From the NCBI GenBank assembly GCA_963924565.1, contig OZ004615.1, positions 16,182,001 through 16,246,000 of the forward strand: DNA of 64,000 bases, written 5' to 3'. Shown here in pieces: positions 14,101 through 63,975 of the stretch (positions within the stretch are counted from its first letter, which is position 1; each line of letters starts with the position of its first letter). The notes beneath the pieces were generated by a model. That model was not told the origin of the DNA. It made no database searches and saw only the letters and a program-made list of their open reading frames with translations. The translations under genes and the position numbers were made by a program. This DNA comes from Ascidiella aspersa. Lineage: Eukaryota.

Positions 14101-17100
14101 CGTAACTATTAAAGTTGAAACCAATTGTACCTTTGAGTTGTTTTGAAACAGCGAGGCAACCTTATTGATCAAGACGATGCTGCTTCCTAAACCTGCGATT
14201 GATGATTTTACAACACAGGGGTTGTTCACCTTAAACAAAATATGATCGCGTTACATTTGCATCAAAACATAATTTCCTAACCGCGATAAAACATTTAGAA
14301 ATATGGACAAAGTAACTTCTAAAAAAGAACAATAGTAGACCTTCGTAAAATAACCAAAATACACCGAAATCAAGGCAAGCATTGCTTAACTTTTTACAAT
14401 ACCTTCAATGAAATTGTTTTTCTCTTTTTCTATATACCTACTCTATATATTTACATTTTTTCATGACTGTGTACAAAACGTATTATTCAAGCTTCTAGAT
14501 GTGCTATATAGTACTTAGTATCTTACCAGAGTCAGCCTTAGACCGGGCGATTGAACAAGGATTTTTGTGTAAAAGGAATGATCTGGTCCATTGTTGATAA
14601 TTGTAACGTTTAAAGTCATCACAGCCGGCGTAGCTCCAATCACGTATGTCGCGGACGACATTGGAATCCTGAAGACATAGCAGAAGTTTCAAATTTTACA
14701 AATATAGGCCCAGTGGGGTTGTTATGGCTGCATCGGATAACACACGTTCCGTACTAATTGGCTTAGGTATCTTGAAAATGCTTTTAAAGCCAGGAAATAA
14801 ACAGGAAACAAAAGATTTTGTTATAATCCAGAGGTACCCGCTAAACAATTGGGGTAGATTACGACTTTTTCATTTTAGGCCAGTGGTCGGCAACCTTTTT
14901 CTAGTCGCGGGCAAAAACCAAACTCAGAAAGATTTCACAAAATGATAACTAAGAATTGTGTTATTTTCATGTTAAAACTACTGTGAATCAGACGGACCTC
15001 GGATCGTAATAACATTTAAGAAGTCTGTAAAGTGTTGGCTCAAAGAGCGAAAAAAAAAATTGTTTGGTTTAAAATTCGAGTTCACACGTCTTTGTCCATA
15101 CTATTAACGAAAAGTAATAAAACTGCTTTGAGGGAACGGGTTAACATTTAAAGTTAATCTAGCTGAGTGCTGACACACCTGACGAGCGAAGCGAGCGTGA
15201 TTTTTTTGGTATACCGACATTTCTTTTAAATTTCTTGCAAGTTTTTATTACATTGCCGAAAATAAAAAAAAATGTTAAAAAATATACGTCCAACATTTTT
15301 AATACGTTTTTCGTGACGCACTTGGCTGCCTTCCACGGCGCAACGGTTAAGAAGCGCTGATCTAGGTGAAAAGACAACATTAAAACATAAACAAACAGGA
15401 TTTAGTGTGTTGTTGCTCGGAGCGCGAACAATTTTCGCACTTACGTAGTTAAAATAGTCAAAAAGTATGTGAAACGGACTCGTATCTAAATTGTCAAAGA
15501 GGCGGCGAGCCCGATGAATTACATCGGCGGCCGGGCAGTAGGTTGCCGACCCCTGTTTTAGGCAATACGTTTCATCTCTTCTTCTTAGAAAGTATGAGAC
15601 CGTAAAAAAACTTACCAATTGAGAATGTCAAAGATCACACCACAAAGTTAAACATTGAACTGTAACATTAAAAAACTATTCTTCAGAATAAGACAGCTGT
15701 TCTCAAGCGTATTTACGCACAAATCTGCAAATATGTAAATAATTTGCGTTTCATTGGTAAGCGCAAAAAAACGTTTATTTGGGAAAAACTGGCAAAACTT
15801 CCCACTTATAAGGATACTCGACAAACTGGAAACAGTAAGAGATATGCACATTGTTTCACGGATCGAATGACATTTATCTACTAAGTTGTTTGAACAAGTC
15901 CAGACACCCATTGGTCTACACATCTCTGTGACTGAACACACAGTTTGAGATATTTTGTTTAAAAGAATGCATTACTGACGACGCAATGGCCATATTGCAA
16001 AGATGTGACAGAATTCCACAAATGCATTGTGTAGATCGTTCAAGTGCACACTGTGCTGTAGCCTGTGAGTGTCAGCTTATGCGACACGGGCAAAAATGCT
16101 TTTGTAGATCGTTCAAGTGCACACTGTGCTGTAGCCTGTGAGTGTCAGCTTATGCGACACGGGCAAAAATGCTTTTGTAGATCGTTCAAGTGCACACTGT
16201 GCTGTAGCCTGTGAGTGTCAGCTTATGCGACACGGGCAAAAATGCTTTTAGAAGGCGGGATAACTTTTTTCCTCGAAATTTTTCAAGTTGACATGGGATA
16301 AAATTTAATTTGATCTACAAGCCGCAACTGCTATGAGTCTTTATAGCACCGAGAAAAACTCACGAAGTTGTCGCTGCAAGGGAAAGGTCGTGAACGCATT
16401 TGCCGTCGGCTCCCGTGCAACCAGTTGTCAACATCAAATCAGTCTGCCTAAATTTGGCTGCAAGCGGATCAATTATGGGCGAGAGTACTCGATTGAGATG
16501 CGTGCTGGTCAGGTGGTAGCTGTACAGCAGCCTCAACGGCGAGTTGATGATGGTGGCGCCCAGTGAAGGAGCATACGAAGCACCCTAAAACATGCGAACA
16601 AATTAAGTAATTAACGGCGAAGGGTTTGGTTGGTTTACCTGTTTCTAGTAATATGCATCTGGAAAAACAATGGAATTTGACGACTTACGTTAAGTGTGAT
16701 ACCGTATGTAGTGCACTGAAGGTTAAAGTTCAAAAACTTTGTGACGTTCAGAACAGAAGTTGTTCTTGCGTTTCCGAAAAATATAACTCGTTTATTGCTT
16801 TGTGTTGTAACGAGACTATCTAGGTCCAACAGCGTCACCATTTCTTTACAGAGAACATAAAACAGATTATTACAATACGAGTACAGCTTGTAAAATGTCA
16901 AACATAATTCTATTATCACAATTGGACAAATACACAAACAATTAGTACACTTACCACTGTTAAAGAAGGTAGTAAGTCAAACAATATTTTAAAATGTTTT
17001 TTTTTCGTTAAACACAATTAATAACAACTTACGAATGGTGGGTGGGTCGTTTTGTGCCCTTTGGACGGCTTTAATGCAGACCGTGACATCTGCACACGAA

Positions 17101-20100
17101 CCATTGGAAAGCAAGCAATTAAGAAGATTAACAGTGGGCGGGTTTACAGTCACCGAGGCGGTCACATCGAGAATTGGCCTCGAATGAAGCGCGTACACTT
17201 TGTCGCTAGCTGGCGCTGACACGACAATGTCTGGGTAAGTGTCTGAATTGACGTCCACGCCTTGTTGGCTTGGAGTTTTTACAAGGGCGTAACCAAAGCT
17301 TACAAGGCCGACTGCCACTGTGCTTCCAAGTAAGCGCTGAAATGAACCAAAATCACGTTTTTTATATTTTACCTTGAGCAAACTTCACTTAAAAAACTAA
17401 GGATACAAGCAAACGGGCAAACAATCAAAATAAAAAAATATGTTCTATTCAGTAGATGTTCGTTTACTTCTTATTCAGATCACAGTAAAGGGATATATGT
17501 TTTAACACTGAAAAAAAAGATAGTTTTTACCTGCTTATAATTTTCACTCAGGCCCTGGGCACTTCCGTAATACAGATAAATGGCTCCGCTGCTGCTTGAC
17601 GTAAGAGCTTCGCGCGGCGCTCCAATCACAATATCGGTGAAATTGTTTTTGTCGACGTCACCCACTGCAGTGATGCTCATTCCAAATCTTGCACCCACCG
17701 CGTTCGACCCCGACAGTAGCAACGCTTGGTAGTTTGTTGAAACCTAAAAGTTCCATTGATCATTTATCCAAATCAAACCCACAGACATATGATGAAAAGA
17801 TGTAGCCCACCGTCGAAACTTCATGTGAAACACCGGGTCTACCCTCTGTATAACAACTTTAAAACAAACATTTATAACTAGAGAGGGAAAATTATTGCTT
17901 ATGGTGGTTTTTAATTATGAAAAATTTTATTATGAATATTTGTGTGCGTGCTATATTCTGTGCCCAAACGGATAATGTTTATGTTTTATTTTCGGGCATG
18001 TTTGGCCGGCACGTATAAGCTAAACAAACACAAGCTTTTTTGTAAAACGTTTTGTCAAGTCGGTTTATTTTTGGGCTACATACAGTTATTCTTACCCAGT
18101 TCATCGGGCCGAGATTTTTCGGGTCGTTCATATATACGAAAACCCTTCCTTGGTCGTAACCCTTCACGTCGCTGTAAAGGGGGGCAGAAACGAGTAGGTC
18201 GTCGTACGCGTCGTTGTTTAGGTCAACTGTCAGAACAGAATGACCGTAGTAAGCTCCCAGTTGCCATGTTTTACCGTTTGGGTGCAACGAAAAGAAATTT
18301 GAAGTCGGAGTTAGAATTTGATCCACCAGTGAAAAAACAACCTAAATCGGAAATGAGGTATTTATTATGTACCGGTAGTTGCTAAAAATGTAAGTTACAT
18401 TTTGGGGTAATAAAATTTGATGGTACCAAACTACGACCTTTTTCTTTAAAACGTCAAGTTTGTCTTAATCAGCAAGTATTTTATGTTAATGCTTTTAAAA
18501 AAAATATAGCAATTTGGAACATTAGACTTAGATATTTATTTATGTTTACCTGTCCTCTGGATTGGTACCGTGGCATTCCACTTGCAACAAACATTTGTGA
18601 GCTTCCAAGGTACTTGCCACTAGTAACCGAATAACCTGACAAATCAACGGAGTACATCGAAATCATCTTAATTAAGACGTTTCGATATGAACTTGTATCA
18701 TCTTTAGCTAAAGTGACTCTCGTATCGAAAGACAATGTTTGGATGTAACAATGACTTTGAAGAGCACATTTTCCAAAAAAAACGATAATTTGTAGTCACG
18801 ATAATGAATTTCAAAGCAAAAAAGTTCGAGTGGATCGACATCATCTTGATTAAGACGTTTCGAAACAAACTTGTATCCTCTTCAGTTAAAGTCTAAACGT
18901 CTTAATCAAGATGACGTCGATCTACTCGACCTTTTTGGCTTTGCAATTCATTATCAAGCTACATTACAGATCCGTACATAGTATACCCACTTAAATATAC
19001 TCCACATCGATAGAGTTTGTTCTCCACATGGATAGAGTTTGTTCACCTGTTACCAACAACGCTAAACGACATTTAAACAACCGCCCCAACTGACATCTTA
19101 TTTTTTCGTTCTTCGTATTTTTTCGCTGTCAATTCATTTTTCAGAAAAGGTTTCATTGAACAAATGGCAAGCACTTACCTAGGTAGGAATCTCGTAATTG
19201 ACTGATGTTTTGTGGACTCAGTATGGTTTCCAGACCAGTAAGATTGAGAAGTTGCGGCAGTTTATCGAGCGACTGGTAAGCGGCGAAAGATCCAGCTCGG
19301 TCGTATGAGCCGACAGCCCCCACGATTGGGCTGGAATTCTGTAAAAAGAAACTTGTCTGAAATTTGATTTACGATATTGATTGAGGGTAGTAGTTCTCAA
19401 CCGGGGTGTCATTTCTAATGCTCATGGGTGCCGAGAGATATTTGATAATCTTTAAGAATCTGATTTTTCAAGTCTTACAACTTTTTATGTAAGATTAGAG
19501 TGGAAGAAATCCAATTATAACTTCCTACGTTGGGTGTGATGTGTGTTGTTATTGTGACATTCTAGTGAATTACCTACGGAAAAATCTTGTACGGGTGCCG
19601 CAATCTATATATTATTTTTGAGGGGTGCCGCAGGCCATAATGGGTTGGGAATCAGTGATTTAGGGGGCCTTTAAACAAAATTTGTATATATTGATTTTTT
19701 TAATAGAAATGTAATTTTTTAAAGTTTTGATTCAGGCTAAATTATTTAAATGATTAATGTAGTTAGATTGTATATAAAATAAAACCACGACAAACATGAG
19801 CGACCTAATTATAAAGGCGGTTTGATTTTTTTTGCTGTCATAGCAAACATGTACATGTAATATTGAAAACTAATTACAAATTCGTTCAAATACCTTAGGT
19901 GTGTGCAACGAGAGGCCAAACTGTCCGTTTAGAAATTGAGAAGTTGTGTTGGAAACTTTACCTGCACACAAATAACAACAAGATATACAAAACGACGCTT
20001 TAAGTTACTTACTGAGCAGGGGTTGGCCAACCAGTTAAAGACCACGAATGTATTTCTTACTTTGCGAACCAGCGAGATGATACGCTTTACATATTAAGAG

Positions 20101-50097: not shown

Positions 50098-59813
<9,716 letters not shown>

Positions 59814-61738: not shown

Positions 61739-62129
61739 CAGTGATGTAAACAAGTCATTTCAAAGTCCCAGTCAAGTCTTTTTGAATAAATAACAAGTCA
61801 AGTCCCAGTCAAGTCATACTTAGAGCAAGTCAACCTCAACAGCCCTTGTCAAAAAAACTTTAAATTATGCAAACCGGAAAACTCCTCTGATTATTATGAG
61901 CAACTCAAGTAAAAAATAACACAAAAGCAACATATTACAAGCAAATTCATATATGCTCAAAGATTGGGATAAATAACGCAATTTTATAAAAAATTACTTA
62001 AAAGTCATTTGTCCAAATGACTTAAGTCAAGTCAAGTCATTTGCCCAAAAGACTTCAAGTCAAGTCATTTAAAAACAGTGACTTAAGTGCACTTAAGTCA
62101 AGTCATAGACTTAAGTCATTACAACACTG
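61739..62129. mobile_element. Non-autonomous element with AAGTC pentamer arrays
   Basis: Ends CAGTGATGTAA / TTACAACACTG with many AAGTC units. Related pieces lie at 8451-8610 and 58420-58450. Confidence 0.6.
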
Positions 62130-62811
62130 TTTTACAATGTAACATTTTAGCATGTTTTTTTAAACAGATTCCACCAAAACTAATTTCGTGTAAACAGGTA
62201 TACACCTATGTTCAGTATTTTTTAAGCCTTCGTTAAACATAGGTTACTAGAACAATCAAAGATTTAATCATGAATATGACGTTTCTAATTGAAAAATAGG
62301 GCAATGGAAATATGTCAAAACTAGCCAAAAAAAATGCACCTGACCCTGAATTCCCATAGCTGAAAGAAAATTGTAAAACAAAATTTCCTTGTTTATTTGT
62401 GTACAAGAAACGACATGAAAAAATATAAGTTAGAAAAATGTGTTGCAGATGGGAGTATACGAATGTGAAGCTCTAAACATCGCTTAGCAATAGAAGATAA
62501 CACAGAAAGGAAATCACAAGCACCATGTTAGATCACTTCACAAAAAGCCTTATTCATAAAGAAAACAGAATTGAAAACCCGGTGCTTTTAAAAATCGCAC
62601 AAATAAATGCAATAACCACAGCAAATTTCGCTTGGAAGAATTAATAAATGTTCATATACAAGTAAAACGATAATAATCATCACCACCATACATTTGAAAC
62701 TGGTCCTACATGTTTACAAGCATGCTTAGTTTTTATTATGGCACAAATGCATTTAGGACTTAGTAAAAATGTCTGATGCAGTTTGAAACAGTGTTTTTTG
62801 GTACAGTAAGG

Positions 62812-63975
62812 TTATTTACACACAAAGCCAGCTTTACAGTACTCCTTAATTTTTTCTGGAAGGGGCAGCCCATCCACTGCGGCATTCATCTTAGTGTGAA
62901 CATTGTCATCAAAATCAGAATCCTTGGAGCAACCGAACCCCTGCAACAGTGTGCTGCGTAAGGCCTGTTTGCACAAGCACAGAAGATTGGCAGGACTTCC
63001 CTTCAGAGCAAGCACTTCATAGTTGCGAAACAAGTACTCCTTCCCATCAAACGGGATGTATAGGCATTTGTGAGTTGGATGAACTTTTCCTGGTATCTGC
63101 ACAGAGTCGAAGCTTATCTCCAGTCTTTTACCCCGCCAGGTTCTTCCCTGGTTCAGTGAGCCAACTGTTCGCCCAATATAAAGCGGCTCCAGGTAGGAAC
63201 AGTCGATGCCCCCAATTACAGCGTTCAAGGGGACATTTCCTCCACTGCATCTCACCCAATGTACAGAATCACTGTCACTTGAAGCTAACACCTCATACTC
63301 ATTTGCTGTTCTTACTCCAGTTCCATATGAAACTAACAGACATCTAAAAAAACATATATAGTATTTTTGTCATAATGTTTATTTAATAATACATATGTAT
63401 TTACATAAACATACATATATAGTAATATAAACATATATTATTATAACTTTTAATACAATATAACTTTTGTTTACAAGAAATATAAAGTTACTGTTTGGAA
63501 TTAATTGGGATTGTTGGACTTTCATAATATATATATATATGTATGTTTACATTACTTATGAAAGTCCAACAAATCCCGCCATTGGCAAACTAAAACAGCG
63601 CACAATCCGTAGTGATGTACACTTTAAAAACCTCTGGAATATGTCATGTCACTTGTTTCTAGATGAATTTGGTGGATCCACTATATACTGTATTATATTC
63701 CTGAGTTAAAATGGTCATTATACTAGAACAAAATAAAAGTATTTTTACTTTTGGCTTGGAATGACGAGGCCCGGGGTCAACTGATTGTGATTCTCCAAAA
63801 GGCGAGTACGTCCGATGTAACAAATTTCCATGTTCGGCAAACAGCCACCTGCTATTGCACCCTTAGGGACATTTCCATCTTTGGCACTGTGCCAACATAA
63901 GTTGCTTGAAGGAACAGTAGTGGGCCCAGTACATTGATCCAATTCGAGCATAGTCCAACGACCACAGCAGAGCAT
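62812..63975 (-). CDS. DM9-repeat (DUF3421/natterin-N-like) protein with C-terminal SOCS box; two exons in window (63749 to ~63951/63975 and 62812-63343), start uncertain
   Basis: A phase-2 intron joins WHSAKDGNVPKGAIAGG..CYIGR..TPGLVIPSQK to CLLVSYGTGVRTANEYEVL (DM9 repeat 1). Repeat 2 is WVRCSGGNVPLNAVIGG..LYIGR..IPGKVHPTHKCLYIPFDGKEYLFRNYEVL. It is followed by a BC box (PANLLCLCKQALR) and a Cul5 box (VDGLPLPEKIKEY). Confidence 0.88.

Follow-up and report, generated by a model that had tools for sequence, protein, structure and literature searches.

Tandem DM9 lectin repeats joined to a SOCS box in Ascidiella aspersa, a candidate glycan-reading Cullin-5 substrate receptor

The sugar-reading ubiquitin ligase receptors covered in the available text of a review (PMC6389600) are all F-box proteins on Cullin-1. 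Fbs1/FBXO2, Fbs2/FBXO6 and Fbs3/FBXO27 combine the FBA fold with Skp1-Cul1; in the same text their epitope is the inner Man3GlcNAc2 core, and Fbs1-3 act on ERAD substrates and damaged lysosomes. The receptors of Cullin-5 ligases (CRL5), including SOCS, ASB, SPSB, Rab40 and PCMTD1, carry a BC box and a Cul5 box after a recognition domain, and no lectin or DM9 domain is named among them in the available parts of PMC12590147, PMC4092859 and PMC13134007. The closest known DM9 protein is CGL1 (CgDM9CP-1) of Crassostrea gigas (PDB 5id8, 5idb and 5mh0-5mh3), a mannose lectin of two DM9 repeats. As far as the available text of the primary paper goes, its high-affinity site A consists of Asp22, Lys43, Glu59, His52, Phe126 and the Ala127 amide, while site B has no such Asp and is weaker (PMC4932603); a review gives Glu39 instead in its available part (PMC10377782), and the primary paper was followed here. 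The substitutions D22A and K43A are reported to abolish mannose binding (PMC5712788, available text), and the Kd of CGL1 is given as ~0.12 mM. Natterins join DM9 to an aerolysin domain.

The protein described here is encoded in a window of 64,000 nucleotides of the Ascidiella aspersa genome and, judged by its domains, is a member of both the DM9 family and the SOCS-box receptor family. It shares with CGL1 a two-repeat DM9 fold, complete site-A residues and the lack of a signal peptide. It differs from CGL1 in that the complete pocket lies in repeat 2 instead of repeat 1 and its counterpart is dead, in that a long insert is present in repeat 2, and in that the C-terminus is a SOCS box. Like the CRL5 receptors, it has its BC box and Cul5 box after the recognition domain, and the box is split, as in PCMTD1. 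The DM9 pair is shared with the natterins, and the Ciona intestinalis ortholog (LOC100184299; XP_002131710; UniProt F6ZPA1), 58% identical over exon 2, was auto-named 'natterin-4-like' though it has no aerolysin domain. A natterin toxin identity was rejected for the window protein: Pfam gave DM9 and SOCS_box only, with no aerolysin domain, and the protein ends after the SOCS box. F-box and FBA domains gave no Pfam match in the window protein at E up to 10.

The DM9-SOCS combination has been noted in passing and never studied. A SOCS domain in an ascidian (Ciona) DM9 protein is mentioned in one Results sentence of a 2025 paper, with no function, and the available Discussion does not return to it (PMC12379375); the UniRef name of the Clavelina ortholog is 'SOCS box domain-containing protein'. 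The original prediction, which knew of no characterized protein of this architecture, was thus inexact as to the architecture itself, while the available text of that paper holds neither a function nor a ligase reading. Ciona and Oikopleura proteins are among the 477 DM9 proteins of a 2017 supplement (PMC5712788), in whose available text files the term 'SOCS' is absent. SOCS, Ciona and tunicates are not mentioned in the main text of a natterin review (PMC8402412), and the DM9 and SOCS box mentions in the available text of PMC9024128 are unrelated. Literature on DM9CP and ubiquitin, including the available part of PMC11727788, gave no functional account of DM9-SOCS. The open-licence literature, outside which much DM9 work is published, held no functional account, ligase reading, pocket analysis or sponge form.

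The DM9-SOCS gene was located at the right end of the window, on contig 9 of the 309-Mb genome. It consisted of two exons on the minus strand (63975-63749 and 63343-62812) encoding 252 aa, and the spliced frame was open between the ATG (63975) and the stop codon (62814-62812). Coding exon 1 (63749..63975, minus strand) contained the start ATG, a 27-residue hydrophilic leader and the first two thirds of DM9 repeat 1. Coding exon 2 (62812..63343, minus strand) contained the end of DM9 repeat 1, DM9 repeat 2, the SOCS box and the stop codon. The intron between them (63344..63748, minus strand) was 405 nt long, GT..AG and phase 2; it was predicted, and it was also skipped in a contig of run X2 (library not on record), which omitted exactly this stretch, reading CT..AC on the plus strand, at a depth of 233. 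In X4, an RNA run chosen by its species label and from a study other than that of X2, the exon bins had 8.5-12.6x coverage and the intron bin 0.13x. First mates fell on the plus strand, which is the orientation that transcription from the minus strand should give. In the row of the joint X4 gave 0 reads, at a sampling of about 6% of its reads. The probable 3' UTR covered 62371..62811 (minus strand), the X2 contig ending at 62371, with AATAAA starting at 62737 and 62397. The DM9-SOCS gene is real, expressed and conserved.

In the sequence past the window end, an in-frame stop was found 8 codons 5' of the ATG with no AG between them, and the Clavelina and Phallusia orthologs shared the same first residues; therefore the ATG is the true start and the protein is complete. 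An upstream coding exon, which could have added a signal peptide, was ruled out by the same stop without acceptor and by the ortholog starts. The absence of a signal peptide, originally stated for the visible part only, holds for the complete protein, in which a simple hydropathy scan (not a trained predictor) found neither a signal peptide nor a membrane segment. According to the available text of PMC12379375, the majority of oyster DM9 proteins are secreted, entering the haemolymph, so a cytosolic location cannot be concluded from the lack of a signal peptide alone. An N-terminal double cysteine was considered as well, which resembles the palmitoylation signal of GAP-43; it was rejected as such a signal, since at this place the Phallusia ortholog has a single cysteine and the Clavelina ortholog none. 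Just past the window end (L005 ~2818-2790, minus strand), a polypyrimidine tract and an AG 42 nt before the start codon were observed, the AG being followed by a five-codon upstream ORF; the tract and AG may belong to an intron within the 5' UTR or serve as a trans-splice acceptor.

Pfam DM9 scored 85.6 bits in the exon-2 frame and 30.2 bits in the exon-1 frame (cut-off 26.2), in agreement with the two DM9 repeats predicted earlier. DM9 repeat 1 (63286..63894, minus strand; residues 28-95) was split by the intron and had lost its own pocket residues. DM9 repeat 2 (63010..63258, minus strand; residues 105-187) had an intact pocket of Asp123, Lys162, Tyr171 and Glu178. As a stand-in for the spliced window protein, its Phallusia ortholog, with 61% identity over exon 2, was modelled with AlphaFold (pLDDT 88). 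This model matched CGL1 with a Foldseek E of 1.5e-10 and a TM of 0.88 by target, and with a VIA Z of 22.1 (rmsd 1.8 over 140 residues); its match to the nematode sperm protein MFP2 was weaker (Z 13.9). The modelled fold is CGL1-like, with two tandem DM9 repeats.

The pockets were assigned by mapping residues through alignment. At the positions of CGL1 Asp22, Lys43, His52 and Glu59, repeat 1 had Leu46, Leu70, Leu79 and Val86, and the residues of the second CGL1-type pocket (Lys, Glu and an aromatic) were not kept. The Tyr82-Gly83 loop of repeat 1 lends the partner-loop residues to the repeat-2 pocket, and in this way the full CGL1 site-A set (Asp123, Lys162, Tyr171, Glu178, Tyr82 and Gly83) is present by alignment in a single pocket. 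As aligned, the window protein has one complete mannose-type pocket, and the reciprocal pocket is dead. The original prediction had left open how many of the DM9 pockets are intact; the residues survive in one of the two. With one pocket and the Kd of CGL1, low avidity is expected.

Among the relatives, repeat-2 residues were kept in the tunicate branch (21 rows) as Asp in 17, Lys in 20, Tyr/His in 21 and Glu in 20, and in a third branch (9 rows) as Asp in 9, Lys in 9, Tyr/His in 9 and Glu in 8. In the sponge-type rows (22), Lys was kept in 19, Tyr/His in 18 and Glu in 19, and Asp in only 2, so the family as a whole is without a high-affinity pocket. The 105 other, unrelated DM9 pairs kept repeat-2 Lys in 94, Tyr in 90 and Glu in 102, and these three residues are therefore not specific to the clade. 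In the same pairs the repeat-1 residues were common (Asp 73/100, Lys 87/104), while repeat-2 Asp was rare (11/102) in a gappy-loop column that is perhaps partly misaligned. The repeat-1 Lys was kept in 0/21 tunicate-branch rows, and loss of the first pocket was common to the whole SOCS-bearing clade. These counts indicate that the usual asymmetry of DM9 pockets is reversed in the SOCS clade; the fold tolerates the loss of pocket residues, yet one set was retained.

A clade-specific insert separates the GR motif from the PGK motif of repeat 2 (63097..63168, minus strand; residues ~135-158). It was at least 25 residues long in every one of the 43 SOCS-bearing rows that could be measured, out of 48, and the same region had a median of 8 residues in 90 measurable other rows (112 in the set), the longest inserts among the latter including tail-less members of the SOCS clade. 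The insert was strongly conserved among the closest orthologs; it probably adds selectivity or a second contact, which is speculative.

The insert bears on the main alternative, a rather unlikely one, in which the protein is a true Elongin BC-Cullin-5 receptor but its DM9 pair now reads a degron in a protein or some ligand other than mannose. Recognition would then fall to the insert, which is conserved, and to the first pocket, which has been remodelled and is hydrophobic, by analogy to the SPRY, ankyrin and WD40 domains of other SOCS-box proteins. The presence of the insert across the clade and its conservation among the closest orthologs are in keeping with this, as are the clade-wide loss of one pocket, the absence of the Asp from 20/22 sponge-type rows and the fold match to MFP2. 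DM9 proteins also bind proteins, namely 14-3-3, integrin and Pfs47 (PMC12379375, available text). FBXO44 is a further precedent: by the available text it has retained the Fbs residues yet does not bind glycans (PMC4603797), so kept pocket residues are no guarantee of sugar binding. Against this alternative, the window protein, its orthologs and a 39%-identical paralog all combine the partner loop with the complete set of four pocket residues, and the pocket residues were kept in 8-9 of the 9 third-branch rows.

Pfam SOCS_box scored 24.7 bits in the exon-2 frame and 29.0 bits in the last 62 residues (cut-off 23.5), a modest result just over the cut-off. A tail profile built from 12 sponge-type tails gave the window tail 25.5 bits, and 0/2000 shuffles reached this value (1714 scored; best 7.7 bits). 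The SOCS box claimed by the original prediction was thus recovered at the C-terminus, and the BC-box and Cul5-box peptides quoted there correspond to residues 195-204 and 232-244. The BC box (62959..62994, minus strand; residues 193-204) had Leu196, Cys200 and Leu204 in the predicted Elongin C-binding helix. It was followed by a lengthened, variable and acidic SOCS-box spacer (62878..62958, minus strand; residues 205-231). The Cul5 box (62836..62877, minus strand; residues 232-245) covered Pfam profile positions 23-39, with Leu-Pro-Leu-Pro at residues 235-238. The consensus of a BC box is a Leu..Cys..Leu spacing and that of a Cul5 box Leu-Pro-x-Pro. Both boxes had been described as directly following the DM9 repeats; this is correct for the BC box, which starts five residues past the last DM9 strand, but the Cul5 box lies 39 residues beyond the BC-box Leu.

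This distance was 35-54 residues in the closest orthologs. In 39/55 pattern-matched proteins it was 22, and the window spacer was 17 residues longer; the split of the SOCS box is accordingly a derived insertion. Across 30 tunicate and sponge-type rows, the BC-box Leu was invariant (30/30), the Cys nearly invariant, and the Leu-Pro-Leu-Pro of the Cul5 box nearly invariant. The BC box was helical in the Phallusia model and in a tail-only model (pLDDT 68). Structure lent the tail limited support. The structure rows for the tail included ASB9 (Z 4.1, 32% identity, rmsd 1.9 over 38 residues) and SOCS4 (Z 3.7, 26% identity, rmsd 2.1 over 39 residues), which stood among unrelated helical rows; the remaining rows had no more than 14% identity. 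With the tail-only model, Foldseek found nothing below E 0.001, and a phmmer search of the PDB with the tail sequence returned 0 SOCS-box chains at E 10; both results are uninformative for such a short interrupted motif.

It is quite improbable that the tail is only SOCS-like, with a long spacer and no Elongin C binding in this ortholog group, leaving a plain one-site lectin. The marginal Pfam score, the phmmer result and a spacer of 35-54 residues, set beside 22 in most others, are in keeping with such a lectin; the BC-box Leu is nevertheless invariant and the Cul5 box is kept on either side of a freely varying spacer, and relatives with an uninterrupted SOCS box score 30-37 bits. ASB9 and SOCS4 have the top identities to the tail, though with Z of only 4.1 and 3.7. 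The available text on PCMTD1 reports a split SOCS box with an 89-residue linker that still assembles CRL5 (PMC12590147), so a split SOCS box can work.

SOCS boxes differ in their affinity for Cul5 (PMC13134007, available text), and both Oikopleura and the third branch have a poorly conserved Cul5 box. These observations, together with the report that an oyster DM9 protein signals via 14-3-3 and Rel in the cytosol (PMC12379375, available text), would fit a cytosolic lectin whose SOCS box mainly stabilizes or turns over the lectin itself or damps a signalling complex. Against this explanation, which is improbable, stands the Leu-Pro-Leu-Pro, whose near-invariance throughout the 30 rows, tunicate and sponge-type alike, points to selection for cullin binding. 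On the reading as a Cullin-5 receptor, the BC box would very probably dock Elongin B/C and the Cul5 box Cullin-5, as judged from the two motifs.

A search with exon 2 returned 11 relatives, including proteins of Clavelina lepadiformis, Phallusia mammillata, Ciona intestinalis and Ciona savignyi. Profile searches revealed a second ascidian paralog group (Clavelina, Ciona and Styela), to which C. intestinalis LOC104265812, with the same architecture, belongs. The clade spanned Ciona, Phallusia, Clavelina, Styela, Oikopleura and the sponge Dysidea. The survey suggested in the original prediction thus returned tunicate relatives, and the range had been under-called, the fusion being carried by the Dysidea sponge too. 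The Dysidea avara form had four DM9 repeats, and the label 'sponge-type' (22 rows) was taken from this species alone. The Oikopleura dioica members had a degenerate tail with no Pfam SOCS hit. Among 55 relatives hand-picked from 161, SOCS_box was over the cut-off in 28, under it in 9 and without a hit in 18; among 30 further relatives the numbers were 15, 5 and 10. A feature search of the ESM Atlas (clusters of at least 50 members) with the Phallusia ortholog gave no usable match and no DM9-SOCS cluster.

A phylogenetic tree was constructed from the last DM9 pair; the columns of the insert were taken out, and three long branches were dropped, which left 158 rows and 134 columns. The SOCS-bearing or tail-truncated rows numbered 53, of which 49 were assigned by a tail profile built for this analysis and 4 were relabelled as truncated by hand. 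All 53, with 3 rows without a scored tail, fell on one branch (SH-aLRT 95), and a mixture model with 98 rows gave the same 56-row branch (SH-aLRT 95). Within it, the tunicate sub-branch had an SH-aLRT of 86, the sponge-type four-repeat sub-branch 95, and a third, with a C-terminal extra domain, 99. Branch support was SH-aLRT only, and the named members of the outgroup were mostly arthropod. The simplest reading of these sequences is a single origin of the DM9-SOCS fusion, on a tree of few columns.

The third branch (P0043, P0102, P0114, P0132, P0136, P0139, P0140, P0154 and P0157) had a DM9 pair, a BC box and a weak Cul5 box. Its C-terminal domain resembled bulb-type mannose lectins in predicted structure (TM 0.61-0.68), and 9/10 structure rows of this domain were clusters with B_lectin members, all of them under the naming bar; a PDB search with the third-branch profile gave no lectin match for the C-terminal part. 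Outside the SOCS clade, P0142 had two DM9 repeats and a C3HC4 RING finger over the Pfam cut-off; by its domain content, it connects DM9 with a ubiquitin ligase module a second time, independently of the SOCS fusion. For the receptor reading, both the bulb-lectin-like domain and this RING fusion count as circumstantial. P0098, a clade member, had a degenerate tail and then a weak jacalin-like match (E 0.029). P0069 (909 aa) combined DM9 with Receptor L, furin-like and growth-factor-receptor IV domains, and may be a gene-calling chimera.

The A. aspersa genome contained an Elongin C exon, a Cullin-5 exon (E 7.7e-25 to solved Cullin-5) and at least 9 other SOCS-box matches. A single-exon paralog on contig 4 (L001:1345-2049, plus strand) had two DM9 repeats and a SOCS-like tail. 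It was 39% identical to the window protein, with the same layout and pocket pattern, and its tail was uninterrupted, with a SOCS_box score of 20.9 bits, under the cut-off. The genome thus has at least two DM9 loci, both of the SOCS type. The paralog lies back to back with a PRMT3-like zinc-finger gene. An FBA (Fbs) search of the genome gave no match, but the controls were equally silent, so a replacement of Fbs by DM9-SOCS in tunicates is unsupported.

The surroundings of the gene were inspected as well. The last exons of a mitochondrial carrier (SLC25) gene (58447-59813, plus strand; Pfam Mito_carr) run toward the DM9-SOCS gene, and integrin alpha chain exons with FG-GAP repeats and Integrin_A_Ig_1 were found at 16989-18341 (minus strand). 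Dispersed AAGTC-type short repeats lie just downstream of the 3' UTR (61740-62130); they had a very high copy number in DNA runs and were present in RNA reads too. On the 5' side, a near-identical tandem duplication of ~940 bp with short internal repeats was located 2.3-4.1 kb from the start codon (L007:4232-6111), with high-copy repeats beyond it (about L007:6350-8700). Exons that by eye resemble an acid sphingomyelinase-type phosphoesterase lie 13-18 kb past the window end (L008:5113-9768, minus strand); the two of these exons that were tested gave no Pfam match.

Taken as a whole, the reading of the protein as a substrate receptor of Cullin-5 that recognizes glycans in the cytosol, much as the Fbs F-box proteins do, has about an even chance of being right. 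The logic proposed to be shared with Fbs1-3 is a cytosolic lectin with a cullin-docking module; the fold (DM9, not FBA) and the adaptor and cullin (predicted Elongin BC-Cul5, not Skp1-Cul1) are different, as is the epitope, CGL1-type pockets binding terminal mannose. As modelled, the two DM9 repeats would form one CGL1-type lectin unit, whose single working pocket is predicted to consist of repeat 2 and the repeat-1 loop, and it is fairly likely that this pocket binds terminal mannose. By analogy, the ligands would be high-mannose glycans appearing in the cytosol, bound through their terminal mannose, with retro-translocated glycoproteins, ruptured endosomes or lysosomes and escaped microbes as candidate sources; an oyster DM9 protein is described as a cytosolic microbe sensor in the available text of PMC12379375. 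The bound glycoprotein or membrane remnant might then be ubiquitinated, as with Fbs1-3.

For the family, a broader proposal is put forward tentatively, and it is somewhat doubtful: the glycan-reading Cullin-5 receptors would have arisen once before the sponge-chordate split (or moved between the lineages), with a patchy presence in sponges, tunicates and at least one other lineage. They would constitute a second route of mannose-directed ubiquitination, independent of Fbs, and DM9 would have been coupled to ligases at least twice, through the SOCS box and through RING. The sponge-tunicate range raises the question of deep loss versus transfer. The receptor reading is open to direct test in Ciona, which has two paralogs, and the BC box and the four residues of the pocket are suited to point-mutant controls. 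If that reading holds, Cullin-5 would take part in glycan sensing through a lectin fold other than that of the Fbs proteins and probably through another epitope, terminal mannose, and the DM9 proteins would gain a defined cytosolic effector.
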